A stretch of DNA of 64,000 bases from an uncultured Methanosarcinales archaeon (GCA_964557345.1 CAZKZU010000001.1:555-64554); one strand, 5' to 3'; counted from the stretch's first letter, positions 4,085-34,540 are shown. A program made the numbers and translations. The notes: generated by a model from the letters alone, not told the origin.

Positions 4085-4347
4085 TTATAATAAGCACCTC
4101 TCTATTTTTTATTTTTTTATTTTTAAAAAAATTATATTTTAATTTATGATCCTCGATGATGATAAGTTTCGATTAAATAAAAAGTAGCATCTGTCAAAAC
4201 TTTTATACGTTTTGCTAAGGTTCTGCGTTCCCGGATGGAGCATCCCCTCGCAACGAACTCGCAGTGTGGAATTATGAGTTTTGACCTTTTGGGATGCAAC
4301 TTTTTATTGTACAATTAATTTATTATTTATTTAGGAAGGTATTCCCT

Positions 4348-4578
4348 ATGAAAGCATTATTGTTTACAACTCCAACTTGTATTAAATGTAAGAAAGTAAA
4401 AGATTTTCTTGCTAAGCAAAATAAATTTTCTGTTGAATTAGTTGATGCGTCTACTCCTTCTGGTCTTGAGCTTGCTAAAAAGTATGATGTGTTTGGTGTT
4501 CCCACTGTTGTTTTTTTTGATGGCGATACTTTGTTAGGTGTTGCAACTGATATTGACGAGGTAGAACAATATTTATGA
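4348..4578 (+). CDS. Small glutaredoxin/NrdH-like redoxin (CxxC)
   Basis: TPTCIKCKKVKDFL thioredoxin-fold CxxC motif, ~76 aa. AGGAAGGT Shine-Dalgarno-like motif 8 nt upstream. The ORF-track start at 4294 is probably an over-extension. Stop overlaps the nrdG start (ATGA). Confidence 0.55.
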   Translation: MKALLFTTPTCIKCKKVKDFLAKQNKFSVELVDASTPSGLELAKKYDVFGVPTVVFFDGDTLLGVATDIDEVEQYL

Positions 4579-5345
4579 TTCTGAAAAACTTTGGGTCTGC
4601 ATCATGTAATGATTCTGAAAAGTTAAATGCTTTTTCTGATACTTCAAAAATATTTCCTATAAAAGGATTTCAAGCGACATCTCTTATAGATTACCCTGGA
4701 AATATTTGTGCAGTTATTTTTTTAGCTGGATGTAATTTTAGATGTGGCTTTTGTCACAATAAAGATTTAGTTTTTAATTCTAGTAATTTACAACTTCATA
4801 ACGAGGAAGAAATATTAAGTTTGCTTTCTAAACGTTCTAAGTTGATTGATGGGGTTTGTATTACTGGAGGAGAACCAACACTCTATCCTTACTTATATGA
4901 TTTTATTGTCAAGATAAAAAAAATAGGACTGAAAGTTAAGCTTGATACTAATGGGACTAATACTTTTCTTTTATCTCAGTTGATTTCTGAAAGATTGGTG
5001 GATTATGTTGCTATGGATATTAAGCAATGTAAGCAAAAATATGATTTAATTTGTGGCACTAAAGTAGATATGTCTCAAGTAATTGGTTCTGTAGAATTAT
5101 TGAAAATAAGTTATATTGATTATGAATTTAGGACGACGTTTGTACCTGAGTTAATAAGTTGGGAAGATATAGTTGAAATTTCTAAATGGTTAAATGGTGC
5201 AAAAAGATATGTTTTGCAACAATTTGTTCCTATGTATACTCTTATTAATCCAAAATTGACCAAAACTATTTCTGAAGCTGATTTGAAAATGATTTCTGAG
5301 AGAGTAAAGCCTTGCTTTGGAACAGTTGAAGTTAGAGGACATTAA
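4575..5345 (+). CDS. nrdG: Anaerobic RNR activating enzyme (radical SAM)
   Basis: CNFRCGFCHN (Cx3Cx2C) and GGEPT motifs. Translationally coupled to the upstream redoxin gene, downstream of nrdD. Confidence 0.75.
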   Translation: MILKNFGSASCNDSEKLNAFSDTSKIFPIKGFQATSLIDYPGNICAVIFLAGCNFRCGFCHNKDLVFNSSNLQLHNEEEILSLLSKRSKLIDGVCITGGEPTLYPYLYDFIVKIKKIGLKVKLDTNGTNTFLLSQLISERLVDYVAMDIKQCKQKYDLICGTKVDMSQVIGSVELLKISYIDYEFRTTFVPELISWEDIVEISKWLNGAKRYVLQQFVPMYTLINPKLTKTISEADLKMISERVKPCFGTVEVRGH

Positions 5346-8257
5346 TATTCTTTTATGCCTAATATATCTCCTAAAGTGCCTTTAATTTTTGCCTTAGTCA
5401 ATTTTGCATATTCTAATATCTCAGAAGTATTTGCACCTTTTCCACTCATCCCATAGAAAGTATTTTCTCCTAATAAAACATATGACCAAATACAATCCAT
5501 TCTATGTTCGCTAATCAATTCATTTATTTTATCAATCCAATCGATAGTCGCCAAACGTTTCTGCTGAACATTTTTATTATTCAAATCTTTTTCTGCCTTA
5601 GTTTCAACCAAATAGATCTTATCTTTTATTCTAACTAAAAAATCAGGAAAATAGTGCGCTAATAACCCATCATCTCTAATGTAAATAATATTCGCAAAAT
5701 CATAATAGTGTTCATTAATCTTCATAAATGCTTTCACTTGGGAATCTGCGTCTATAAATTCAACAAACGCCTTTTCAAACCCGCCTTTATTTGAAGGATA
5801 TGCAATTTTAGGATATATAGTCTTGGCAACATCAAGTGCATAAGTTTCTCTAATTTTAATTTCATTTATTTCTGAAAATGCTCTTTTAATTATCTTTGCA
5901 TCAATTACTTTAAGACTATTTTGCAAATCATATATACATTGACTTACATTTTTGACAATATGATTTATTATTTTTTCTTGAGTTAAAAGTAAAACCTTCC
6001 AATTATTATTTTTAAGTGGTTCAAATTCCTGTCCAAAAAGCTTATATCTTATATATTCATCAACTAAACTTGCAACCAATGCCGAATTAATCTGCATTAT
6101 CGGATACTTTTGCTCTTTATTTTTTCCTATTTTAATTGGTATAAAAGATACTGCATTAACTATTTTTTGAATAAAAGAATTATAACTTTTTGCTGTAAAA
6201 ATATCAGAAGTTACAGTATATTCCCCATATTTAGTTTTTACCGTCAATTCTTCTCCATAAAAAGTATCGCCATCTTTCAAAACTAAAGGAGTTAAATCAT
6301 CTAGAGGGATAGGAAATTTTTCTAACTTTTCAGAAGAAAGAGATATTGACGAGAAATGTTCTTCCTTATCATGGATTATTATAGGCCAAGAAAAATCGTA
6401 ATCTACAAAGTTTTCTTTTAATGAAATGGAAATAATATCTCCGACAACATGATTTTTAGTAGGCATTTCTTTAGTAATCGCAACAGCACCACTTAATTCA
6501 TTATCATAAAACTGAATAAAAGCAGGATGTTCTATAATACTCAATATATCCATATAATTGTCTGGCTCTTCCTTTCGCACAAGTAATTTATTTCTAATTT
6601 CTTTTTTTGCATCTAAATACTGTGGTTCCCTCCACATTAATCTTAATCCTCTTCCTATAGTCTGTTCTAAAAGAATAAAAGAACTGCTAGATCTTAAAGG
6701 AACAATAACGCAAATATTGCTTACATCAAAACCTTCTCGAAGCATTAAAACAGAAATAATAATTTTAGGCTTTGAATGTTTATCTATACTAAATAATTTC
6801 TGTTTAAGAGAACTCCATTCATCATCAGAAATTTCTCCTTTTTTATTAGAATGTACTTCAATTAATTCATCCTCACTATATCCTTCTTGCTTCAAGAATG
6901 CTGACACATAAGAAACAACTTTTGTGTCTTCACACATAACTAAAAGTTTGGGGTACTTTGTGGGATCTAATGATGTAAATCCTTCTTCAAGAATTCGTAA
7001 TTTAGAAATTCCAGCTCGGAGCATAATTCTTTGACCATCAGATAATCCAAGTATGGTATTTCCTTCTCTTTCAGACTTAAAATCAAGCGGAAGTGCTGCA
7101 AGTTCTTTTCGTTTATCAATTGCAACAGTCTTGACTAATCCTAACTTAATTGCAGTAGGTAATTCAAAATTAGTAATTATATGAGGAAAAAAATGTTTTG
7201 TTCTCTGCTGACCAGAACCTGTAACTGAATACGGAGTCGCTGAAAAATCAATTTGCAAAAATTTATTCTGCTTTTTTTCTGCAATCAAATCAATTGCTTT
7301 TTGCCATTTCTTTTCAAAAGTATCGTCTGATTTTTTAAACTCACCTAAATGATGAGCTTCATCGTTAAAAACAACTAAATCAGAAAGATTTGCTAAATAT
7401 TCAATTTCTTTTCCTCTAAAATGTTGGTTATCCAATTCTTCAAGTGAATGACCTGCAGATATGCCAGGAGTAATAGGAAGCATTTGCTTCACAGTTTTTT
7501 CAGGACTATCTAAAGGAGTTTCAACATCTTCTTCCTCCTCGCTTCCAGACAATAAATGCCAATTAGTAATTGCGATTAACCCCTCTCCAGTTACTTTTTT
7601 CCCGATTTCATCTTTTGTTGAAACGCTAGACTGAATAAACCCGAACATTTCTTCTTTATATGCTTGTGGAAGAAATAAATTCTCAAACTTTTTAAAATCA
7701 GACTCTTCAAAATTTCGTGTACCATCAATGTTTTGCTTTCCCAAATATGCATCAAGCAATCTTTCATAAACAATAAGTCCTGGTGCGATTAATAAAAAGT
7801 TTTTTGAAAATCTTCCAGACATAGACTCTTCATACTTTGCATTTAAATATTGCCAAATAAGAATGGCAGATAAAACCCAAGTTTTACCAGTTCCCGTAGC
7901 CATTTTAATGCAATATTTAGATAATTCATATTTTTCTTTTTTCAAATCAATCAAATCCAATCCTGATAACAATTCGGGATAAATAGATTTGTAAATATCA
8001 GTCACAGTTTTGATTTTCAATATTTCATGAATATAAATAACATTAAGAATTGCTTGCCATTGTCCCTCATGGAAATTAGCATAACGCAAATCTCCAAATG
8101 AACCACTAGGATCCCAAAATCGCAATAAATCTCTAGTAATGGGAGACACTTTTTCCAAAAAGTCTCCTTTCTCATATTCTTTATTTACTTTTTCAGTTAT
8201 AGCTTTCGCTAACTTTAAAGGAATATCCCCAGTTCCGAGATTTTTTGCTTGGACCAT
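5342..8257 (-). CDS. res: Type III restriction enzyme Res subunit (SF2 helicase + nuclease)
   Basis: Walker A MATGTGKTW, DEAH-type FNDEAHHLG, 971 aa. Co-directional and immediately downstream of the mod gene. Confidence 0.85.
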   Translation of the reverse strand: MVQAKNLGTGDIPLKLAKAITEKVNKEYEKGDFLEKVSPITRDLLRFWDPSGSFGDLRYANFHEGQWQAILNVIYIHEILKIKTVTDIYKSIYPELLSGLDLIDLKKEKYELSKYCIKMATGTGKTWVLSAILIWQYLNAKYEESMSGRFSKNFLLIAPGLIVYERLLDAYLGKQNIDGTRNFEESDFKKFENLFLPQAYKEEMFGFIQSSVSTKDEIGKKVTGEGLIAITNWHLLSGSEEEEDVETPLDSPEKTVKQMLPITPGISAGHSLEELDNQHFRGKEIEYLANLSDLVVFNDEAHHLGEFKKSDDTFEKKWQKAIDLIAEKKQNKFLQIDFSATPYSVTGSGQQRTKHFFPHIITNFELPTAIKLGLVKTVAIDKRKELAALPLDFKSEREGNTILGLSDGQRIMLRAGISKLRILEEGFTSLDPTKYPKLLVMCEDTKVVSYVSAFLKQEGYSEDELIEVHSNKKGEISDDEWSSLKQKLFSIDKHSKPKIIISVLMLREGFDVSNICVIVPLRSSSSFILLEQTIGRGLRLMWREPQYLDAKKEIRNKLLVRKEEPDNYMDILSIIEHPAFIQFYDNELSGAVAITKEMPTKNHVVGDIISISLKENFVDYDFSWPIIIHDKEEHFSSISLSSEKLEKFPIPLDDLTPLVLKDGDTFYGEELTVKTKYGEYTVTSDIFTAKSYNSFIQKIVNAVSFIPIKIGKNKEQKYPIMQINSALVASLVDEYIRYKLFGQEFEPLKNNNWKVLLLTQEKIINHIVKNVSQCIYDLQNSLKVIDAKIIKRAFSEINEIKIRETYALDVAKTIYPKIAYPSNKGGFEKAFVEFIDADSQVKAFMKINEHYYDFANIIYIRDDGLLAHYFPDFLVRIKDKIYLVETKAEKDLNNKNVQQKRLATIDWIDKINELISEHRMDCIWSYVLLGENTFYGMSGKGANTSEILEYAKLTKAKIKGTLGDILGIKEY

Positions 8258-8277
8258 AGTAACTTGTTTAAAATTAT

Positions 8278-8772
8278 TTAGTGTTTATCATATTTTTTTG
8301 TTTTGATTAATTTTAACTTTTCAATATACTCTAAAGGCAAATTACATTCTTTAGCACCTTCAATTATAGTCGTCATGTAATTTACATAGGGTAAAAACAT
8401 ATCTTCAGTCATCAAACTAAAGTCATTGCTATAAACTCTGTAGGTTATTGCAGAATATGTTGTACCTGCCATATTTGTAACTAATATGCTCTCTCTTTTA
8501 TATTTTGGAAATTGTTCTTGACTAGTGCCCTCCCAATAATCTAATTTTAAAATATCATCATCAGTTACTTCAAATATAACACCCCACAACTTATCGTTCA
8601 TACTACTATCAAAACTAGCAACGCCACCTTTTTTTTTCAAAGAAAATTTTGGAAAAATTAATTTCATATTATTGATATAGACGATATCTAACAATTGCAA
8701 AGTCTTATTCTTAAGCCTTTCCCTTATTTGAGATAAATTCATATTTGAACCATATGCAAAATAATATTTCAT
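8278..8772 (-). CDS. Gamma-glutamyl cyclotransferase / AIG2-like fold protein embedded in the R-M operon
   Basis: N-terminal YFAYGSNM hallmark and LDYWEG motif (GGCT/GGACT/AIG2 family). Lies 40 bp after the mod stop and 20 bp before the res start, on the same strand. Confidence 0.55.
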   Translation of the reverse strand: MKYYFAYGSNMNLSQIRERLKNKTLQLLDIVYINNMKLIFPKFSLKKKGGVASFDSSMNDKLWGVIFEVTDDDILKLDYWEGTSQEQFPKYKRESILVTNMAGTTYSAITYRVYSNDFSLMTEDMFLPYVNYMTTIIEGAKECNLPLEYIEKLKLIKTKKYDKH

Positions 8773-8812
8773 TTTCCCTCAATAAAAACATAACTTTCTA
8801 TAATTAATATAA

Positions 8813-10870
8813 TCATATATCCTTCACCGTAACACTTTCAAATCCGAATACATCAACAGCTTTAATACAAATTTTTCTTCGACCTGACTTTTTTGGAACT
8901 ATTAATTTTGCTGATTTAATCACCCTAAACTCATCACCATCATTATCTGTGTTTTGACGATAATCCTGCCATTTACTTCTAAAAACTTCTCCATCATAAT
9001 CTGGATCAATACTCCAATATTCGATCAAAGATAAAGGATCTTCCTGAATTACTTTATCCAGTTTTTCTTTATTTTCTTTATCCAACGGTAATGCATCAGG
9101 AGAAAGAAGAACGTAATTTTCCAGTTCAATTTCAATTTCATCTTCGTCATCACTATATTTTTTTGTTTTAACTGGTTTAACAGTTAAATATTGTAAAGAA
9201 GAAAACTTAACCTTTTCTGATTTAATTAAGTCTTGATAACTTGTTTTTGATTTTAATTTATCAAGCAAATCAGGAGGAATTACTAAAACTTCAAGTTTAT
9301 CATCGTTTAAACTACTTAAAATTTTACCTATATTAACATCAAAATTCCATCCAAGAACAATAACTTTATCCCAACCGCCCATAAAACTAGCTCTCAATTC
9401 TTGAGCTTTTTTAAGCGTACTATATCCAGTTAATTTAGATGGAGAATCAACAATAACTAAAATCTTACTAAGTTTAATATATCCAAAATTATTTGGAATC
9501 CCTTCCTGTTGAGGAAAAGGCAAAGCGCCGAAAAGATTTATCACAACTTGAGATAAATCTCCAATAGTCTTAAACTCTGATTTCTCAAACTGTTCTTTTT
9601 GATAATCTCCTATTGATTGATATAAAAAAGGCTTCGCCTCTTGATCAATTAATCGCTTTCTCTGAATCATGCATGCAGGTTTTCCTAATTCACACATAAT
9701 CCAATTTCTTTTTAATTCTTCAGAAGCTATACCTGTTGTTCCAGAGCCTGCAAAAAAGTCTGCAACAATATCATTTTCTCTTGATGCCATTTCAATAATC
9801 CTTTTCAAAAAATTAGGAGATTTGGCAGTTAAAAAATCACTATTATAATCATAAGCAATAACATCATCCCATAGTGTATCGCAAATAGTATATTCCTTCG
9901 GAGCTAAGAAATATTCGGGCATACCGCTACTACCTAACCTAATAAATTCTAAATCAGAATGTTCTAAGGCATATTCATCCAAGGATAAATCATCACGATA
10001 TTTTTTTAAATATATATTATAATTTTCAACTGCTTTTTCAGCTCTATCTTTATTCCACATCCACTGACCTGTAGTAATTTTTACACCTAATAACTCATAT
10101 CTTAATGTAGGCCTATCTGCTGGTTGTTTGAATCCATGCCAATACCCTTTTCGAAAAAATTCTTTAGTAGGGGCATTAAATTTAACAGAAGAAGTTTTCG
10201 CGTATACATAAACTGAATCCCCAAATAAATTAAGAGAATTTAATTTGTCGAATTGTTTGGTTAGATTCTTATTAATTCTTCTGGTCACTATCTCGTTTCT
10301 AAAATTCTCTTTTCCAAATATATCATCCATAATAACTTTAACATAATGTCCAACATGCCAATCAATATGTACATAAATCGAACCTTGTTCTGATAATAAC
10401 TCTCTCATTAAAATTAATCGAGGTATCATCATTTGCAAATATGAAGCTGTTCCATCTTTCCAGGTATCAGAATAAGCGAATTGCTCTATTACTGTTGGCT
10501 TTTGTTCAATATCTGTTCCTGGAAGATGAATTTTAGTTCTATAATCCGCTTTAGAATCAAATGGTGGATCTATGTAAATCAAATTAATTTTTCCGCGCAT
10601 GGACGACATTCCTGTTTGAGGATCGCCTGCAAGTAATGCTTGCATCGCAAGTAGATTATCTCCATAAATCATTCTGTTAAGCCAATCCTTTTTTCCTAAT
10701 TCTTTAACACTCTGACCAAAGAAACCGCCTTTTGCTTTTGTTGGAAGAACTAATTCATTTGTCTGCAAAGTAACACGATTAGGTTTAGAAAGCCCATCTA
10801 AAATCTTTTGAGCTTCCTTTTTACCTTTTTCAATTATTTTTGGTAATTCTTCTATTAATGAGGCAGGCAT
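8813..10870 (-). CDS. mod: Type III R-M Mod subunit (beta-class N6-adenine DNA methyltransferase)
   Basis: Motif IV IYIDPPFDS precedes motif I DFFAGSGTTG; 685 aa; followed co-directionally by res. Confidence 0.85.
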   Translation of the reverse strand: MPASLIEELPKIIEKGKKEAQKILDGLSKPNRVTLQTNELVLPTKAKGGFFGQSVKELGKKDWLNRMIYGDNLLAMQALLAGDPQTGMSSMRGKINLIYIDPPFDSKADYRTKIHLPGTDIEQKPTVIEQFAYSDTWKDGTASYLQMMIPRLILMRELLSEQGSIYVHIDWHVGHYVKVIMDDIFGKENFRNEIVTRRINKNLTKQFDKLNSLNLFGDSVYVYAKTSSVKFNAPTKEFFRKGYWHGFKQPADRPTLRYELLGVKITTGQWMWNKDRAEKAVENYNIYLKKYRDDLSLDEYALEHSDLEFIRLGSSGMPEYFLAPKEYTICDTLWDDVIAYDYNSDFLTAKSPNFLKRIIEMASRENDIVADFFAGSGTTGIASEELKRNWIMCELGKPACMIQRKRLIDQEAKPFLYQSIGDYQKEQFEKSEFKTIGDLSQVVINLFGALPFPQQEGIPNNFGYIKLSKILVIVDSPSKLTGYSTLKKAQELRASFMGGWDKVIVLGWNFDVNIGKILSSLNDDKLEVLVIPPDLLDKLKSKTSYQDLIKSEKVKFSSLQYLTVKPVKTKKYSDDEDEIEIELENYVLLSPDALPLDKENKEKLDKVIQEDPLSLIEYWSIDPDYDGEVFRSKWQDYRQNTDNDGDEFRVIKSAKLIVPKKSGRRKICIKAVDVFGFESVTVKDI

Positions 10871-10968
10871 AGGTTTACAAAAGTTACTTATCGTTTAAAT
10901 ATGTTACGCTAATTGATACTCTATATGTTATTCTAGTTTATATGTAGATTATTACGCTATATGTATTT

Positions 10969-11223
10969 ATGAAGGAAAATCTATCTTTGTTAAGAAGTAA
11001 GCTAAAAAGGGATGTTTTGATGCTTTTAGAGGATAAAGAGCTTTCTCCAGTGATGATTGCTAAGCAATTGAAAAAACCAAGACCTAGTATAAGTAGGATA
11101 ATATTAGAATTAAAGGATAAGGATTATGTTTATTGTATTGATGAAAAGAAAGATAGGTGGCGATTCTATAAAGCAACTCCAAAGGGTAAGAAAACTTTAG
11201 ATGATATAAAAAAGTATGTTTGA
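10969..11223 (+). CDS. Small winged-HTH transcriptional regulator, divergent from mod
   Basis: 84 aa with a wHTH-like SPVMIAKQLKKPRPSISRIILELKDKDYV segment. Divergent promoter region shared with the R-M operon. Confidence 0.4.
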   Translation: MKENLSLLRSKLKRDVLMLLEDKELSPVMIAKQLKKPRPSISRIILELKDKDYVYCIDEKKDRWRFYKATPKGKKTLDDIKKYV

Positions 11224-11253
11224 ATAAATTAGAATTGTTAATATGATTTCTTG

Positions 11254-11808
11254 TTAAATAATGTCTTCAATTACTTTTACAAATGCTTTAGCTCTTTTTA
11301 GTGATGTTTTTGCTTTTTCTTTTTCTGCATTTTTTCCAAGTTCGTATGTGAATATTTTTCTTTTATTCATTTCTGCTGAGAAATCATCAATCATTTCAAA
11401 TACTCTGTTTTCTGAAATTTGCATGAGTTCTTCAGCTTCATTTATTGCTTGTTTATATTCTTCAATAAAGTGTTTTTTTAGTAATTTATTTTGATTGATA
11501 AAATAATATATTATTGCGTGATATGTGAAGCGATGGATACCGTATTCAGACTTTATTTTGTGATTATATTTTGCAAGAAGTGCTGTAGCTGCAAAGAACA
11601 TGGAGTAATAAGCACTGTTAATTACCCAAAGATACGTATTTATTTTTTCAGTTTCAGATATGTCAAAAAGCCTATTTGATACAATTATTGATTGTTTTGC
11701 TTTATCTAGAAAAAAATGATCTGTTCCTTCAATTGATTTAGTAATAATTCCTTCGGAAATGGCTCTTTTAATTATTTTATCGCTTTCGTTTAATTTATTA
11801 GTATCCAT
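11254..11808 (-). CDS. HEPN-like all-alpha protein, partner of the upstream nucleotidyltransferase
   Basis: All-helical 184 aa. Overlaps the upstream NTase gene by 11 nt. Paralog of 55755..56249. No canonical Rx4-6H motif. Confidence 0.35.
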   Translation of the reverse strand: MDTNKLNESDKIIKRAISEGIITKSIEGTDHFFLDKAKQSIIVSNRLFDISETEKINTYLWVINSAYYSMFFAATALLAKYNHKIKSEYGIHRFTYHAIIYYFINQNKLLKKHFIEEYKQAINEAEELMQISENRVFEMIDDFSAEMNKRKIFTYELGKNAEKEKAKTSLKRAKAFVKVIEDII

Positions 11809-12391
11809 TTTTTGTCTTTAATGTATTAATAAATTGCTCGTATCCTGTGATTACATAATGATTTTTTTCAATTTCGTTCCAAACGTTTATTGTTTTAGAT
11901 AGCCACATTTCTTTTAAATCCAGTTTTTTTATTATATTTATATCTGCATTATATAGTGAAAGCTGGTTTTTGATAACTCTTTCAAATTTATCTCTATTTA
12001 TGTCGTCATTAATTATAAATAGTAAATCCATATCTGAATTTTTTGTCGAGGCTCCTTTCGCATAGCTTCCGAATAAAATGCATGCAAAATTATATTCTAC
12101 GTTTAGAAGAGTTTCTTGGATGTTTTTTAAAGTTTTGTCTTTTTTTTCCGAAAATCTTTCCATTTCAACTGTTACATATTCGAGATTACATTTTTTGAAA
12201 TTAAGCTTTATAACTTTAGCAGAGCCTATTTTATTTGTGTTTATTAGCTCTTTTTTTTCTAATCCCTTTATTATTTTATGTGTTTGAGGATATTTTTGGT
12301 TTAATTTTTCGGATATTTTTTTGATAGATATATCTGTGGTGAAATCCTCGAACAATATTTTCAATATTTGGTATTCGTTTTTCTTTAACAT
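11798..12391 (-). CDS. wHTH-fused minimal nucleotidyltransferase (MNT/Pol-beta superfamily)
   Basis: GSYAKGASTKNSDMDLLFI (GS..D.D NTase motif) and an N-terminal wHTH-like segment. Paralog of 55187..55768. Confidence 0.6.
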   Translation of the reverse strand: MLKKNEYQILKILFEDFTTDISIKKISEKLNQKYPQTHKIIKGLEKKELINTNKIGSAKVIKLNFKKCNLEYVTVEMERFSEKKDKTLKNIQETLLNVEYNFACILFGSYAKGASTKNSDMDLLFIINDDINRDKFERVIKNQLSLYNADINIIKKLDLKEMWLSKTINVWNEIEKNHYVITGYEQFINTLKTKNGY

Positions 12392-12640
12392 TTTTGATAT
12401 AATTATTTTATTATATATATATAATAATATTGTTATATTTATATGTTTTATGATTTAAATTCCGCATTTAGTTGTTAAAACTCTAGTATTTAATCAAGTC
12501 GTTTTACAAATGCGCCATTTTCAAATTCTAGAAAATTTTGAATTTTTGATGTATTGACTTGTGATTCTTTTGCCGTTTTTGACAGATAGTTTTATATATT
12601 ATTAGATAATACTTTTTTATATATTGATTGGACTTGTAGT

Positions 12641-13372
12641 ATGGTTAACAAAACATTTATTTTTGATATGGATGATACTCTTGTTCACACTCATTATTTG
12701 TTTTCTAGAGCGAAATCTGATTTTGTAAAATTTGTTGCAGATACTTTAGGACCTAGAGCTCCTGATATTATGGATATTTTAAAAATGCATGAAAAGATGG
12801 ATGTTGAGCTCACTAACACATTAGGATTTAAGATAGAGAGATTTCCGACTTCATTATCTAGAACTTATCTCGATATTTCTCAAAAGTTAAATGAATCTGA
12901 TTCAGATAGAGATAATCATGCTAGTCAAGCGTATAAAATAGGTGAAGATGTTTTTGATGAGAAATTTTGGCATAAAGATTTAGTATCAAATGCAATAATG
13001 GCTCTTAATTTTTTACTTACTCAAGGAGATGAACTTTTTTTAATAACAACTGGGGATTATAAGATTCAACAAAAAAAGATTGAACATTATAATCTTAGTT
13101 TTTGGTTTAGAAATAATATTGATATAGTTTCTTGTGGGAAAAAAGAAAAAATTGATGCTATTTGTTCTTCCCGGGATAAAAGAAATACTTGGTTTGTTGG
13201 TAATTCAGTAAAGAGCGATATTGTCCCTTCTCTTGAAGCGGGAATTGGGGCTATTTATATTCCTTTTGAGACTTGGGCCTATGAGAATCATACACTTGAT
13301 AATGTGGATAAAAGTCGTTTGATTAAATTAGATGAAATAGGCCTAATTCCTGAGATTTATTTTAATTTGTAG
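12641..13372 (+). CDS. HAD-superfamily hydrolase
   Basis: N-terminal FIFDMDDTLV (DxDxT) motif; 243 aa. Confidence 0.6.
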   Translation: MVNKTFIFDMDDTLVHTHYLFSRAKSDFVKFVADTLGPRAPDIMDILKMHEKMDVELTNTLGFKIERFPTSLSRTYLDISQKLNESDSDRDNHASQAYKIGEDVFDEKFWHKDLVSNAIMALNFLLTQGDELFLITTGDYKIQQKKIEHYNLSFWFRNNIDIVSCGKKEKIDAICSSRDKRNTWFVGNSVKSDIVPSLEAGIGAIYIPFETWAYENHTLDNVDKSRLIKLDEIGLIPEIYFNL

Positions 13373-13491
13373 TTATTTTATATTAGTTTTTGTAAAAAAA
13401 TATTTTATTTTCAATTTTTTTCAATTATTATGAACGTTCTTCGAACTAATTATGCAAACTATTTTATTTTATTTGTTTTTTATATTTATTT

Positions 13492-13830
13492 ATGGAAATT
13501 TGGATAAAAGTAGATGATTTATGGGAAAAATTTAAAAATATGTGTTATATCAATGGATATAACATGAAAAAAGACATATTGCGATATCCTCGATTGGATA
13601 CAATTTTAATGGTTGAAAGTTTTATTCAGAAGAAAGATGGGATGTTTAAGAAAAGAAAACTCTGGGAAAGTCTTCCTAAGAAAATGATGTATCAGACTTT
13701 TTGTGTAATTATAGATTATTTAGTAGTTTCTCATAAAATTTCAATCGACAAAGAGGGGAAAATTGGGTGGATATATTATCCTAAAAGCAACAAAAATGTT
13801 AAGAAAGATAGTAGTTTGTTTTGGAAGTGA
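13492..13830 (+). CDS. Hypothetical protein, possible antitoxin partner of the downstream RelE-like gene
   Basis: 112 aa; overlaps the downstream gene by 10 nt; no recognisable motif. Confidence 0.2.
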   Translation: MEIWIKVDDLWEKFKNMCYINGYNMKKDILRYPRLDTILMVESFIQKKDGMFKKRKLWESLPKKMMYQTFCVIIDYLVVSHKISIDKEGKIGWIYYPKSNKNVKKDSSLFWK

Positions 13831-14165
13831 AAATGATTTTACCTTCTAAAGTAAGATTTTTAGATAAATCTTTACAAGATGCTTATTTTTCTTTACAAAG
13901 CGGATTTGATGATGAGAAAAAACTTTTTAAGAGTTTGAATAAAGCCTTTACTGAAATAGAAAAAAATGCTTTTTGTGGTATACAAGTACCAAAAAATCTA
14001 ATTCCTAAAAGATATATTAAGAATGATATTGTAAATATTTGGAAGTATAATCTTCCTAACGGTTGGAGATTATTATATTCTGTTGAAAATCAAAAGATAT
14101 GTGTTGTTTCAATAGTAATAGAATGGTTGGATCATAAGTCTTATGAGAGGAGGTTTAAATATTAG
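13821..14165 (+). CDS. RelE/ParE-family toxin-like protein
   Basis: C-terminal YNLPNGWRLLYSVENQKICVVSIVIEWLDHKSYE matches the RelE/ParE core pattern (W/YRl.Y.v......v.vl.i.H....Y). Confidence 0.4.
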   Translation: MEVKMILPSKVRFLDKSLQDAYFSLQSGFDDEKKLFKSLNKAFTEIEKNAFCGIQVPKNLIPKRYIKNDIVNIWKYNLPNGWRLLYSVENQKICVVSIVIEWLDHKSYERRFKY

Positions 14166-14611
14166 AAACGAATATGTTTTATCATATCTTCTAGATTTGT
14201 TATTATGTATTTTGGTTGTTCTAGTGCATTTTGCGGAGTTTCATTTGCAAATTTTCCAGATTTATACCAAATTGTTTTCATTCCCAGAATATTTCCCAGT
14301 CTTATTTCACTTTTGACTCTATCTCCAACAATTGCTGTTTGCGAATAGGTCGTATTCATAATTCTTGTGCATTCTTGAAGATTTGATTCTGTTTTTTCGC
14401 CTTCGACAACTTGGATGTTTAGAAAATATTTATCTAGACCTAATTGTGCGATTTGTTCTCTTCTCTCGTCTTTTGTTTTTTTACTTAATAGGCAGAGTTT
14501 GTATCCGTCTTTGATTAATGTATCTAATATTTTTAGAACTCCTGGAGTTAATTGCTGTGTATCTGGATCATACAACGTTCTATTGAAATCAAATATAATT
14601 CCTTTTATCAT
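14162..14611 (-). CDS. HAD-like hydrolase (variant DxN motif)
   Basis: N-terminal GIIFDFNRTLYDP and HAD-like C-terminal half; 149 aa. Confidence 0.45.
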   Translation of the reverse strand: MIKGIIFDFNRTLYDPDTQQLTPGVLKILDTLIKDGYKLCLLSKKTKDERREQIAQLGLDKYFLNIQVVEGEKTESNLQECTRIMNTTYSQTAIVGDRVKSEIRLGNILGMKTIWYKSGKFANETPQNALEQPKYIITNLEDMIKHIRF

Positions 14612-33322: not shown

Positions 33323-34540
33323 TTACTGGAAATAAGCTGTGTCGTTAAAGACTGGAGCTCGATTCTTATTTTCAATTACAATTGCTATATCTTTGCTTAC
33401 TGAATCTTTACCATCGCTTACAGTTACAATTGTTTTATAATTTCCTGCATCTGTATAAGTTGTTTGGTATGTTGAAGATTTCATAAAGCCGCTATATGTA
33501 ATTTTTAAGCTGTCGCCATCTTTGTCTGAAACTACAGGTTTTATTTCAATTAAATCTCCTTCTGAGACTGTAATTGTGCTTGGTACGTCAATTACTGGTA
33601 GATTGTTTAAAGCCTTAACTGTAACTTTAAATGTTTCTTTGTCTTGTAATTTCCCGTCGGATGCTGTTACATCTATTTCGTAAACTCCTGCGTCTCCTAC
33701 TTTAGTTGTCCATTTTCCATTTGTATCAAGTGGCATGCCATATACTATTGATAATGCATCTCCATCTGGATCTGTTGCGCTTGCAGAAACTTTTACAGTG
33801 TCTTTTTCAGTGACTGTTAAGTCAGAGATAGGAGATAATTTTGGAGCTCTGTTTACGTTGTTGATTGTAATTGAAATTGTTTTTGTGTTTTCAGTTTTAC
33901 CATCTTTAGCTGTTAATGTTACAGTTTTATCTCCTGCATCACTATAAGTTGTTTGGTATTCTGAAGTAGTCATAAATCCTGAATATTTTAAAGTTACTTT
34001 GTCGCCATCTTCATCAGTTACTGTTGGATTGAATGTAATTAAATCTCCTTCATTTACTGTGATGTCTTTAAAGTTTGTAATAACGGGTGCTCTATTTACA
34101 GCGTCGATAATTAATCTGATTTTTTGAGTACTTTCAAGTTGACCATCGGAAGCAGTTACAGAAATAATATATTCTCCAGCATCTCCGATTTTAGTAGTCC
34201 ATTCTCCATTTTTGTCTAACGGAAGTGAAAATGTATATGTTAATTTACTTCCATCAGGGTCATAAGCTAAATCTTTTTTAAATTTTACAACATCGCCTTC
34301 TTTGAAAGTTTTTGTTGGAAGATCTTTGATCGCTATGTTATCTTTGCTGTTATCTACGATTACAGTAGATTTATTTTCTTTTGCTGTAGTGCCTTCAGTT
34401 GTATTGCTTTTTGAATAATTCAAATCAAGCAGTACGGACTTAGTGTCATTTGTATTATTTGCACTAGTTCCGGTTGGTGTTTGGCAACCAGCTAATACTA
34501 GTAGAAATAAGCACAATATTATTGCTAGTACTTTTTTCAT
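33323..34540 (-). CDS. Surface lipoprotein with three or more cadherin-like / putative-Ig (He_PIG-type) repeats
   Basis: LAGC lipobox; repeated ~90 aa modules containing NRAPV...D.DGD.L...Y signatures. Confidence 0.55.
   Translation of the reverse strand: MKKVLAIILCLFLLVLAGCQTPTGTSANNTNDTKSVLLDLNYSKSNTTEGTTAKENKSTVIVDNSKDNIAIKDLPTKTFKEGDVVKFKKDLAYDPDGSKLTYTFSLPLDKNGEWTTKIGDAGEYIISVTASDGQLESTQKIRLIIDAVNRAPVITNFKDITVNEGDLITFNPTVTDEDGDKVTLKYSGFMTTSEYQTTYSDAGDKTVTLTAKDGKTENTKTISITINNVNRAPKLSPISDLTVTEKDTVKVSASATDPDGDALSIVYGMPLDTNGKWTTKVGDAGVYEIDVTASDGKLQDKETFKVTVKALNNLPVIDVPSTITVSEGDLIEIKPVVSDKDGDSLKITYSGFMKSSTYQTTYTDAGNYKTIVTVSDGKDSVSKDIAIVIENKNRAPVFNDTAYFQ

Follow-up and report, generated by a model that had tools for sequence, protein, structure and literature searches.

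Positions 5342-14165 of the window, by which we mean the whole stretch of 64,000 nucleotides analysed, contain a genuine cluster of conflict genes, namely a Type III restriction-modification (R-M) operon, a small winged-helix (wHTH) regulator, a nucleotidyltransferase/HEPN (NTase/HEPN) pair and a pair that includes a YoeB/RelE-fold protein. An initial annotation of this DNA had proposed a defence island here, and the genes that it listed are indeed present, each module being backed by HMM, motif or fold evidence. It had also set the bounds correctly, with NrdD and NrdG on one side and ABC_tran and ABC2_membrane_6 on the other. Two HAD hydrolase genes that interrupt the island between modules (12641-13372 and 14162-14611) were omitted from its list. 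The layout is identical in other assemblies of the same organism. Neither the composition of the window nor its mobility genes or flanking repeats give a direct sign of recent acquisition: GC content is flat throughout (0.25-0.32), and no integrase gene, transposase gene or flanking att-like repeat was found in it.

In Type III systems, Mod methylates the recognition site, and Mod-Res, with ATP and a C-terminal PD-ExK nuclease, cuts unmethylated invading DNA. The window's mod gene (8813..10870, minus strand) encodes a beta-class N6-adenine DNA methyltransferase of 685 aa (N6_N4_Mtase, 7e-32; PADLOC MTase_III, 9e-64), in which DPPF at residue 101 precedes FAGSG (FxGxG) at residue 373; among solved structures it is closest to Type III Mod proteins, such as Mbo45V, 6k0w (deposited as 'Mod') and EcoP15I Mod (6.7e-12). 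No phase-variable repeats were found in mod. The restriction subunit Res (5342..8257, minus strand; 971 aa) is an SF2 ATPase that ends in a PD-ExK nuclease domain (Pfam ResIII, 1.4e-13; PADLOC REase_III, 5e-30), and carries GTGKT at 122, DEAH at 299, SAT at 339, QTIGR (QxxGR) at 532 and PD..ETK (PD...ExK) at 871. The operon thus resembles Type III R-M systems of the EcoP15I/EcoP1I type (NCBIfam 'BPTD_3080 family restriction endonuclease') in having mod before res on one strand, in a Mod that is a beta-class N6_N4 methyltransferase akin to that of EcoP15I, and in the SF2 ATPase motifs and C-terminal nuclease domain of Res. It differs from them in that Res lacks any sequence-level match to solved structures and scores 198 bits against the BPTD_3080 model, for which 800 are needed, as well as in possessing a divergent wHTH regulator and a third gene between mod and res. 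The reported operon of mod and res therefore stands by Pfam, PADLOC, motifs and solved Mod relatives, but its content has to be amended to mod-GGCT-res, the middle gene having been missed. This gene (8278..8772, minus strand), with a gap of 40 nt to mod upstream and of 20 nt to res downstream, encodes a gamma-glutamyl cyclotransferase (GGCT/AIG2-like) of 164 aa (AIG2_2, 8.5e-13; GGACT, 2.8e-7).

The wHTH-NTase gene (11798..12391, minus strand) encodes a minimal, MNT-like nucleotidyltransferase (NTP_transf_2, 1.1e-8; Polbeta, 1.2e-8; PADLOC PDC-M05A, 2e-10) with a GSx10DMD motif (GSx10DxD) and an N-terminal HTH_24/MarR domain. It overlaps by 11 nt a gene (11254..11808, minus strand) for a HEPN-domain protein of the UPF0332/PF05168 type, which scores 24.2 bits against PF05168, above the cutoff of 22. 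For the HEPN protein, 60 homologues were retrieved from DPANN archaea, which their source records call UPF0332, and the family profile matches the solved HEPN proteins 9xbd (3e-5) and AF0298. The family conserves H92 and R150-x4-Y155; a conserved Rx4-6H motif was not found in it. The same pair occurs elsewhere with proteins of 198-199 aa and 184-186 aa, in one case again with an 11-nt overlap. The description of an overlapping wHTH-NTase and HEPN-like pair is borne out. Its architecture is that of MNT-HEPN toxin-antitoxin modules (HI0073/HI0074 type; MntA/HepT, type VII), with which it shares the overlap of a gene for a minimal nucleotidyltransferase with the HEPN gene downstream of it, and a two-gene cassette conserved elsewhere, here matching PADLOC PDC-M05A/B. 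Unlike MntA/HepT, however, the HEPN protein is PF05168/UPF0332 rather than a DUF86 HepT, with His92 and R-x4-Y in place of Rx4-6H, and the NTase has an N-terminal wHTH and reaches 29 bits against the MntA model, the cutoff of which is 60. Directly upstream of the wHTH-NTase start lies an AT-rich palindrome (12397..12438; inverted repeat I20, 21-nt arms, 86% complementary), which is possibly an operator, a weak assignment as such low-complexity AT-rich DNA may be palindromic by chance.

The second pair consists of a YoeB/RelE-fold toxin-like protein of 110 aa (13833..14165, plus strand) and a preceding partner, a putative antitoxin (13492..13830, plus strand). Pfam YoeB_toxin is matched at 24 bits, under the cutoff of 27, and the profile matches YoeB 8yxv (0.007) in the PDB. 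The AF2 model of the toxin (pLDDT 73.9) retrieves YoeB 7bwf first in Foldseek (E 5.7e-4, TM 0.73), then RelK, ParE and HigB, and the top ~30 matches are all RelE/ParE-superfamily toxins. The RelE and HEPN assignments, for which a lack of HMM support would have spoken against the island, are sustained by the predicted fold in the former case and by the above-cutoff PF05168 match in the latter. The toxin most likely starts at the ATG at 13833, because its homologues (326, in DPANN archaea and CPR bacteria) are 107-111 aa long and gene callers on other assemblies of the organism agree; it consequently begins 2 nt after its partner, so that of the earlier "overlapping pair ending in a RelE/ParE-like gene" the fold holds and the overlap does not. 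The partner probably starts at M17 (13540) or M25 (13564), not at 13492. It has no Pfam, PADLOC, PHROG or PDB sequence match; its single-sequence AF2 model (pLDDT 52.5) has a pattern of three helices followed by two strands, and partners of 91-95 aa, 64-65% identical, precede toxin homologues elsewhere. Small partner and YoeB-fold toxin have a type II toxin-antitoxin architecture, similar to YefM-YoeB and RelBE in the predicted fold, the small upstream partner, the tight two-gene cassette and the quite different neighbourhoods in which it recurs. It departs from them in a partner that is not YefM/Phd- or RelB-like and a toxin ~25 aa longer than YoeB, as well as in the identity of 52-66% that toxin and partner retain across archaea and bacteria; such conservation is atypical for toxin-antitoxin genes and counts against this reading.

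The wHTH regulator (10969..11223, plus strand; 84 aa), with TrmB, MarR_2, HTH_34 and ArsR-type matches that all fall under their cutoffs, is, as had been reported, transcribed divergently from mod; a 98-bp control region (10871..10968) separates the two. This spacer contains three repeats in the same orientation: GCGTAAT (10951-10957), between the TATA-like box of the wHTH gene (10937-10945) and its ATG; a degenerate GAGTATC (10915-10921); and GCGTAAC (10903-10909), which abuts the TATA-like box of mod (10893-10902). Nine matches to GCGTAAY occur in the window, two of them in the spacer, and the three sites are kept in related loci (L015, L040 and L023) while their flanks diverge. Judged from its sequence context, the wHTH protein looks like a real controller of both mod-GGCT-res and itself. 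It may bind the three GCGTAAY-type direct repeats; one repeat lies downstream of its own TATA-like box and ahead of its start codon, which suggests autorepression, and binding at the two repeats against the mod TATA-like box, in the position of a BRE, would control mod-GGCT-res. The copy beside this box could partly be an ordinary BRE. That the protein is instead an unrelated regulator, such as an ArsR-type metal sensor, which stands beside mod by chance, accords with its weak and generic family matches, but is very unlikely: small divergent wHTH genes lie upstream of mod in ~17 of 67 related loci (the L015 copy being 52% identical), and the repeat motif covaries with the wHTH subfamily. The suggestion that this gene is a candidate controller has thereby gained comparative support.

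For comparison of the R-M operon, 80 metagenomic loci with Mod proteins 54-74% identical to that of the window were used, in 67 of which res (56-75% identity) follows mod. The 67 mod-res junctions, which reduce to 60 distinct operons when near-duplicates are merged, have gaps of either 6-20 nt (45) or 274-5768 nt (22), and about one-third of the distinct operons (21/60) carry same-strand cargo there, long cargo ORFs all lying on the operon strand. Cargo includes two ThsB_TIR genes with 8xMP (ThsB-like TIR proteins with a membrane protein), SIR2 (7e-66) with HerA (5e-174), and an AriA/Old-like ATPase (1e-26) with PDC-M19A (4e-113), in addition to RusA, Bro-N, small membrane proteins and ORFs of no recognised family. 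It is scattered over the Mod tree, and the closest relative of the window's Mod (74%) has a membrane protein in place of GGCT. The mod-res junction is thus a cargo slot, many occupants of which are recognised anti-phage modules, and its identifiable cargo is mostly defence-related.

The GGCT protein, overlooked initially, is the most interesting part of the region. It matches human GGCT (2pn7) over its full length (4e-12), with the YFAYGSN motif and the catalytic Glu (Glu81) aligned and invariant, and is predicted to be catalytically intact. In five of the 80 loci a homologue adjoins mod, in one or the other of two positions, and the operons concerned are dispersed over the Mod tree; the remaining ~0.8 Mb of those loci contains none (p = 2.6e-4 for association with mod, in a rough Fisher test). 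Other relatives include two tandem copies in Thermocrinis, 18 nt upstream of cas7-cas5/8-cas3-cas4-cas1-cas2-cas6, a gene that precedes a type IIG-like R-M fusion by ~1.2 kb, and another that follows an orphan N6_N4 methyltransferase gene on a Mesorhizobium plasmid after 75 nt. Further members lie within bacterial defence islands, where two of them form the C-terminal domain of a longer fusion protein. We infer that GGCT serves as an accessory defence gene embedded in the operon rather than as a housekeeping one. It may be a second-line effector, destroying some metabolite with a gamma-glutamyl linkage, or it may erase the gamma-glutamyl-amide marks that phage amidoligase modules make. The literature search returned no paper linking GGCT to defence. 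Modules of Amidoligase_2 and GGCT were reportedly described by Iyer et al. in Mol Biosyst in 2009. They occur in phages and prophages as phrog_2443/phrog_2520 (PMC11318856), and the window's GGCT belongs to the same family (phrog_2520, 2.9e-10), in both settings on mobile conflict-related DNA. Viral GGCT, however, is paired with Amidoligase_2 and not with R-M (361 matches on viral contigs; amidoligase in 34 of 80 viral loci), whereas GGCT stands alone in R-M, cas and plasmid contexts; the family is therefore not specific to defence loci.

Nesting of defence genes in restriction loci has precedents, as in PrrC within the type IC R-M locus EcoprrI (PMC12707154) and TgvAB within the type I R-M of V. 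cholerae VPI-2 (PMC11411939). A preprint describes a 'guilt by embedding' pattern (bioRxiv 10.1101/2024.01.29.577857); the hosts named in the matching passages are Hma, BREX, DISARM and Type I R-M, and the terms 'RM type III', cyclotransferase, GGCT and AIG2 do not occur in it. The present operon shares with these cases the insertion of a gene, here a candidate defence gene, among those of a restriction system made up of several, in a slot that holds known defence systems in relatives; its GGCT is homologous neither to PrrC nor to TgvAB, and no PADLOC model matches it. A further parallel is DarTG2 in an RptR-controlled type I R-M of enteropathogenic E. coli (PMC12255303). There, as here, a small dedicated regulator adjoins an R-M promoter with three direct repeats, through which RptR acts, and an unrelated module is nested just before the restriction gene. 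That system is Type I and gammaproteobacterial, while the window's is Type III and probably archaeal; RptR is an all-helical protein of 79 aa encoded by the first gene of its operon and binds TAGCTA palindromes over the -10 box, in contrast to a divergently transcribed winged helix that would bind GCGTAAY repeats at TATA/BRE positions; and the cargo is DarTG2 in one and GGCT in the other. The island per se is ordinary, and what is new lies, within the known pattern of embedded defence, in the Type III cargo slot and in GGCT as a defence candidate.

GGCT is found in just five of 80 related operons, which counts against a defence role. It might be a mere passenger, an ordinary gene of 5-oxoproline or gamma-glutamyl metabolism in a permissive insertion site. 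The protein looks normal, full-length and most similar to the human enzyme, its family is widespread, no PADLOC model matches it, and the slot also takes genes without a known defence role (Bro-N, RusA, unassigned ORFs). We nevertheless hold this to be rather unlikely, given the repeated, dispersed linkage to mod, the absence of GGCT from the rest of those loci, the nearest relatives beside cas, type IIG, orphan methyltransferase and defence-island genes, and the predominance of defence among identifiable cargo. A functional partnership with the DNA methyltransferase, in which GGCT processes a cofactor, by-product or base adduct of the modification reaction, draws on the DNA methyltransferase genes that directly adjoin GGCT in the majority of the contexts found (Type III mod in six, a type IIG enzyme in one, and the orphan N6_N4_Mtase on two near-identical Mesorhizobium plasmids), together with a cytosine-5 methyltransferase-like ORF family, recognised by motifs and not by HMM, that lies no more than 2.5 kb from GGCT in 10 of the 80 viral loci. 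It is improbable, as 75 of 80 related Type III operons do without GGCT, no methyltransferase gene adjoins the copies linked to cas or to islands, and, to our knowledge, no known chemistry joins gamma-glutamyl cyclotransferase to AdoMet-dependent methylation.

Taken as a whole, the region is probably best explained as a three-cassette island with a regulated mod-GGCT-res operon and GGCT as an embedded accessory defence gene; the three cassettes would be independent and horizontally mobile, with two HAD hydrolase genes between them, in a low-GC genome, probably that of a DPANN archaeon. Conserved housekeeping synteny, which would speak against an island, was not found among genomes of which the nearest share merely 42-55% NrdG identity, none being a close relative; the R-M, NTase/HEPN and toxin cassettes recur in differing neighbourhoods, every module being seen again in unrelated genomic contexts. 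None of the 80 R-M loci adjoins nrd genes or the HAD, NTase or toxin genes of the window, and weak ABC-ATPase matches (28-38% identity) lie 2-7 kb away in two. Alternatively, there would be no coordinated island: the R-M operon and both toxin-antitoxin-like pairs would be selfish addiction cassettes without relation to each other, the pairs having no anti-virus role, that became neighbours by chance in a small, gene-dense genome. The intervening HAD genes, the occurrence of each cassette alone elsewhere, the lack of a PADLOC match for the toxin and its partner, and the absence of mobility genes and compositional signal in the window agree with such a reading, which we consider unlikely: three conflict cassettes fall inside 9 kb, the NTase/HEPN pair is recognised by PADLOC as a candidate system, PDC-M05A/B, and an ORF112-like gene and a HEPN homologue are found near other copies of the R-M family (L028, L042 and L019).

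The region at 5342-14165 of the window is a probable defence island in its overall architecture, as the initial annotation had read it: three conflict cassettes lie within 9 kb, and they are bordered at one end by NrdD, a glutaredoxin-like gene and NrdG and at the other by an ABC ATPase and two permeases, as had also been described. Each ORF then listed is present, and each of the three cassettes is mobile in the sense that it recurs elsewhere in different neighbourhoods. A role in defence, for the two toxin-antitoxin-like pairs as for the gamma-glutamyl cyclotransferase (GGCT) gene discussed below, is less certain than this architecture. An island of restriction-modification (R-M) and toxin-antitoxin genes is by itself routine; what is new here is a cargo slot within a Type III operon, the GGCT candidate that occupies it, and a series of covarying winged-helix (wHTH) regulator and repeat pairs.

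The Type III assignment is borne out by the agreement of motifs, Pfam matches and PADLOC matches in both subunits. The genes mod (8813-10870, minus strand; N6_N4_Mtase, 7e-32; PADLOC MTase_III, 9e-64) and res (5342-8257, minus strand; ResIII; PADLOC REase_III, 5e-30) are separate and co-directional, with mod first, and the same order is found in 67 related loci. In the Type III family, Mod methylates and the Mod-Res complex restricts. Mod shows the beta-class motif order, DPPF at residue 101 preceding FAGSG (FxGxG) at residue 373, and the solved proteins closest to it are Mbo45V, 6k0w (deposited as 'Mod') and EcoP15I Mod (6.7e-12); no simple-sequence repeats were found in the gene. Res carries the motifs GTGKT, DEAH, SAT and QTIGR (QxxGR), as well as a C-terminal PD..ETK of the PD-(D/E)xK nuclease type. 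It does not pass the curated Type III Res equivalog models (198.5 bits against a cutoff of 800 for NF046055, 30 against 564 for NF012027), and its sequence search of the PDB gave no match; judged by these comparisons, Res is divergent.

While the R-M pair of the operon had been recognized correctly, a gene between mod and res had been overlooked. It encodes a 164-aa GGCT (8278-8772, minus strand) with matches to AIG2_2 (8.5e-13; 49 bits against a Pfam cutoff of 27) and GGACT (2.8e-7; 31.6 bits against 22.8), and it aligns over its full length with human GGCT (4e-12), with YFAYGSN at residues 4-10 and the catalytic Glu81 in register. Both YFAYGSN and the catalytic Glu are invariant among 11 relatives. 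The gene lies on the same strand as mod and res, 40 nt past the former and 20 nt ahead of the latter, and because of this tight spacing and the Shine-Dalgarno-like GAGGG that precedes it, it is to be regarded as an internal gene of the operon. No PADLOC model matches it, and full-text literature searches returned no paper tying GGCT/AIG2 proteins to phage defence; the enzyme class has no known role in immunity.

A metagenome scan with Mod as query yielded 80 loci at 54-74% identity, almost every one of which has res downstream of mod. The gap between the two genes is 6-20 nt in 45 of the 67 junctions observed and 274-5768 nt in 22, so that the junction can be described as a slot, and 21 of 60 distinct operons, with near-identical loci merged, hold cargo in it; the long ORFs of the slot are all on the operon strand. 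Several recognized defence genes are found among this cargo. The slots of loci L018 and L052 contain two ThsB-like TIR proteins and an 8xMP octameric membrane protein, that of L080 contains SIR2 (7e-66), HerA (5e-174) and a DUF3037 protein, and that of L084 contains an AriA/Old-like ATPase-Toprim protein with PDC-M19A (4e-113). A RusA-like protein occupies the slot of L031 and a Bro-N protein that of L041, and further contents comprise several small multi-pass membrane protein families and proteins without assignment. On a neighbour-joining tree of Mod the cargo types are scattered, and the nearest Mod relative, L014 (74%), has a 156-aa membrane protein in place of GGCT; this scatter, together with the different cargo in L014, points to cargo having been gained or swapped repeatedly.

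The TIR-TIR-8xMP set (L018, 2757-3960; L052, 3508-4734) stands in two different operons and may represent a Thoeris-like system with a membrane effector. Other slot families also recur: a 147-149-aa family matching phrog_7512 (L024/L025, 5907-6356; L038, 2546-2989), multi-pass membrane proteins in L036, L050 and L042, two of which have an N-terminal FQEWR in common, membrane proteins of 217-227 aa in L023 and L092, and a family of 334-335-aa proteins in L052 and L054. The recurring unannotated families are candidates for new embedded defence genes.

Precedents for such nesting include PrrC in EcoprrI (PMC12707154), TgvAB in a type I R-M system of V. cholerae (PMC11411939) and DarTG2 in a type I R-M system of E. 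coli (PMC12255303). GGCT resembles these embedded defence genes, PrrC-like guardians among them, in being nested within a multi-gene defence system and co-directional with its neighbours there, and in that the slot is filled in related operons by recognized systems (SIR2-HerA, ThsB-like TIR, AriA/Old-like and PDC-M19A). Passages of a preprint on guilt by embedding (bioRxiv 10.1101/2024.01.29.577857) name Hma, BREX, DISARM and Type I R-M as nesting hosts, and neither GGCT/AIG2 terms nor 'RM type III' occur in its text. The nesting of defence genes in defence operons, shown for those four hosts, also appears to extend to the mod-res junction of a widespread Type III family, and this junction is a new place in which to seek immune genes still to be found.

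GGCT itself recurs in this setting, with homologues in the slot of L035, L037 and L066; in L038 and L049 the homologue shares the strand of mod and immediately precedes it. No GGCT beyond the mod-adjacent copies came up when the roughly 0.83 Mb of the Mod loci were searched with a profile, and a rough Fisher test of the GGCT-mod association gave p = 2.6e-4. The six GGCT operons, including that of the window, are not mutual closest relatives on the Mod tree. We regard the alternative that GGCT is only a passenger in the operon as rather unlikely.

Beyond the Type III family, the few close relatives of GGCT are also found in conflict contexts. In Thermocrinis (L094, 324-1159) two tandem GGCT-family genes head a type I cas operon and are co-directional with it, the second ending 18 nt before cas7 in the order cas7-cas5/8-cas3-cas4-cas1-cas2-cas6, and on a metagenomic contig a type IIG-like fusion of HSDR_N_2, N6_Mtase and Eco57I is found about 1.2 kb downstream of a GGCT. 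A scan of 72,556 plasmids gave a GGCT match in nine. Among those whose neighbourhoods were examined, one GGCT gene (Rhizobiales) has an orphan N6_N4 methyltransferase 75 nt upstream of it; another has an AAA/S8-peptidase pair to one side and a nuclease/ATPase pair to the other, and a ubiquitin-like module close by; one forms the C-terminus of a 505-aa fusion 2.5 kb from Shedu; one is the C-terminal domain of a 402-aa fusion adjoining IS21 and a Phd/MazF pair; and one is near an ABC-three-component system. The orphan-methyltransferase locus and the loci of the two fusions are L195 (5276-6471), L197 (5296-6504) and L198 (5011-6528), and the N-terminal regions of both fusions are without assignment.

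Viral contigs were scanned with a GGCT alignment of five sequences, an 11-sequence one being too diverse, and gave 361 matches. In 34 of the 80 loci retained (L100-L179), Amidoligase_2 (Pfam) lies within 2.5 kb of GGCT, a SNF2-type helicase (Pfam) is found in 10, and an ORF family called cytosine-5 methyltransferase-like on the basis of sequence motifs alone is also found in 10; none of the 80 has a mod or res neighbour. The pairing of amidoligase and GGCT in prophages has been noted earlier (PMC11318856), and amidoligase and amidotransferase genes are known from thymidine-hypermodification clusters of phages (PMC8989533).

Two modes of action can be proposed for GGCT, which would be an embedded accessory defence gene of the R-M operon. 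As an effector, it would deplete a gamma-glutamyl metabolite as a back-up when restriction fails; this mode would fit because abortive-infection-type effectors (NADases, membrane proteins and nucleases) make up much of the remaining slot cargo, and because GGCT is also the C-terminal domain of longer defence-island proteins. As an eraser, it would cyclise off gamma-glutamyl-amide groups that phage amidoligases put on DNA bases or host proteins, which would fit because phages hold the matching ligase and the defence-linked GGCT stands alone beside DNA-reading systems. The recurrence of GGCT in the slot, together with its pairing with amidoligase in phages, suggests a possible writer/eraser conflict over gamma-glutamyl modifications. 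More broadly, and as a tentative proposal that we ourselves consider doubtful, stand-alone GGCTs could constitute an unrecognized defence-associated class that rides in or beside DNA-targeting immunity (Type III and IIG R-M, type I CRISPR-Cas and orphan methyltransferases), as eraser or as back-up effector, in which case the mod-res junction would serve such second-line genes as a dedicated docking slot.

Divergently from mod, and 98 bp apart from it (shared spacer 10871-10968), lies the 84-aa wHTH gene (10969-11223, plus strand) that had been put forward as a candidate controller, a proposal supported by its linkage to mod and by the covariation of regulator and repeat. Its family matches are generic winged-helix ones only (TrmB, MarR_2, HTH_34 and ArsR). 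In about 17 of the 67 loci having upstream sequence, mod has a small wHTH gene of 83-106 aa immediately upstream, which in nearly every case is transcribed divergently from it. Three same-orientation GCGTAAY sites are common to the 93-98-bp spacers of the window, L015, L040 and L023, the remainder of the spacer having diverged; the motif has 9 matches in the 64 kb of the window, 2 of them inside the 98-bp spacer. Start codons in the region are 25-30 nt (about 27) downstream of TATA-like boxes. Site 1 is between the wHTH TATA-like box and the wHTH ATG, site 2 is 12 bp upstream of the mod TATA-like box, and site 3 abuts that box; the copy at the BRE position could in part be an ordinary BRE. A second wHTH subfamily (L021, L022, L027, L056, L060 and L066) is accompanied by GGAAAC-N4-GTTTCC-N4-GGAAAC abutting TTTAATTAA, tandem GTTACC-like repeats occur in the spacers of L014 and L042, and a CACCAAAATTGGTG palindrome occurs in those of L030 and L058. 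Mainly because regulator and repeat covary in this way, we infer that the wHTH protein regulates the R-M operon and itself, with the repeats as putative operators. RptR (PMC12255303) offers a parallel in being a small regulator by an R-M promoter with three direct repeats, but it is not homologous to the wHTH of the window; homology was found neither to RptR nor to C proteins (Xre-type HTH), and wHTH families alone match. The covarying pairs represent a testable case of dedicated transcriptional control of R-M, probably in archaea, where to our knowledge such control is essentially unstudied. An assignment of the wHTH gene to the neighbouring nucleotidyltransferase (NTase)/HEPN pair was rejected: the gene is transcribed convergently to that pair, and it is also found with mod in loci that have no NTase/HEPN genes.

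The NTase/HEPN pair (11798-12391 and 11254-11808, both minus strand) was correctly described as an overlapping wHTH-nucleotidyltransferase and HEPN-like pair: the overlap is 11 nt, and the NTase motif and the family matches of both proteins support the assignment. An N-terminal wHTH in the NTase is accompanied by a GSx10DxD motif, GSYAKGASTKNSDMD, which fits the G[SG]x9-13Dx[DE] of minimal nucleotidyltransferases. The pair matches the PADLOC candidate PDC-M05A/B. The HEPN protein belongs to UPF0332/PF05168, with 60 homologues almost all from DPANN archaea, and its profile matches the solved HEPN proteins 9xbd (3e-5) and AF0298. The Rx4-6H RNase motif is not conserved in the family, the window protein having only R93-x3-H97 with neither residue conserved; the invariant residues are H92, E146, K149, R150, Y155 and R172, giving an R-x4-Y motif. 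A 198-199-aa gene precedes the HEPN homologue in both cases examined, and one of these two genes is a recognized NTase; the 11-nt overlap is repeated in one of these two other contexts, the neighbourhoods of which are unrelated to each other. The arrangement shares with MNT-HEPN (MntA-HepT) systems a minimal nucleotidyltransferase adjoining a HEPN gene, but the HEPN of the window is PF05168 and not DUF86, and its NTase does not pass the MntA_antitoxin model (29 bits against a cutoff of 60).

Of the last cassette, described as an overlapping pair ending in a RelE/ParE-like gene, the toxin fold is supported by AF2 and Foldseek and the overlap is not. The toxin (13833-14165, plus strand) most likely begins at the ATG at 13833 and not at the TTG at 13821, since independent gene calls make it 110 aa long and the length of its homologues is 107-111 aa; therefore, 2 nt separate it from its upstream partner (from 13492, plus strand), whose own start is probably M17 or M25. 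Homologues of the 110-aa toxin number 326, are 52-66% identical to it and come from DPANN archaea and Parcubacteria (CPR). Its profile matches YoeB weakly in the PDB (0.007), and it scores 24 bits against 27 for PF06769, which is found in a few of the homologues, and 16.6 against 51.8 for TIGR02116. The AF2 model (pLDDT 73.9) retrieves almost solely RelE/ParE-superfamily toxins in Foldseek, with YoeB as the lead match (E 5.7e-4, TM 0.73) and YoeB, RelK, ParE and HigB at probability 1.00; the modelled protein is thus of the RelE/YoeB fold. Within the family, the C-terminal H101-x2-Y104 and R79 vary little or not at all; the catalytic residues of E. coli YoeB are Glu46, Arg65, His83 and Tyr84. 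Homologues of the partner, 64-65% identical, precede the toxin in two unrelated contexts with a 4-nt overlap. Although the toxin shares its fold with those of YefM-YoeB and RelBE, the partner matches no known family, YefM/Phd and RelB antitoxins included, and no PDB sequence, and its single-sequence structure model is of low confidence (pLDDT 52.5).

Toxin and partner are 52-66% identical across DPANN archaea and CPR bacteria (window 13833-14165, L180 and L184-L188). Toxin-antitoxin genes are not usually conserved across the domains to this degree, which suggests that the episymbiont groups have exchanged the pair recently or that it has a constrained function other than toxicity. Two HAD-superfamily hydrolase genes (12641-13372, plus strand; 14162-14611, minus strand) bracket the cassette, each with weak matches to TIGR02253 and YjjG-type pyrimidine nucleotidases; in the 149-aa protein, motif I is DFN rather than DxD. 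They might be connected with the conflict genes, for instance through the removal of non-canonical nucleotides. The modules of what had been called a compact island are all present, but these two genes lie among them.

The GC content of the window, about 29%, shows no deviation at the island, and neither flanking direct repeats nor mobility genes were found there. NrdG relatives 42-55% identical come from Woesearchaeota, Pacearchaeota and Nanoarchaeota (or mislabelled) genome bins, groups from which the HEPN and toxin homologues are also named; no R-M genes occur in their nrdG neighbourhoods, and these relatives are too distant to gauge the variability of the block. On the low GC content, these affinities and the distance of start codons from TATA-like boxes, the genome is treated here as that of a DPANN-type archaeon. 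Other assemblies of the source organism, retrieved by exact look-ups of NrdG and the ABC ATPase, have an identical gene order. In the Logan assembly SRR12261226, contigs break at the borders of the island, just inside res (after nrdG) and at the NTase start (L097, L098), which might reflect strain heterogeneity or simply low coverage. The glutaredoxin/thioredoxin-like gene between nrdD and nrdG (4294-4578, plus strand) is conserved in DPANN relatives. Several other large ORFs of the window match no family. Of two predicted large surface proteins (33323-34540, minus strand; 58537-61371, plus strand), one has PKD, Big_9 and cadherin-like domains and the other, of 944 aa, has Gly_rich_2 and Laminin_G_3; such proteins are typical of the cell-surface repertoires of episymbionts.
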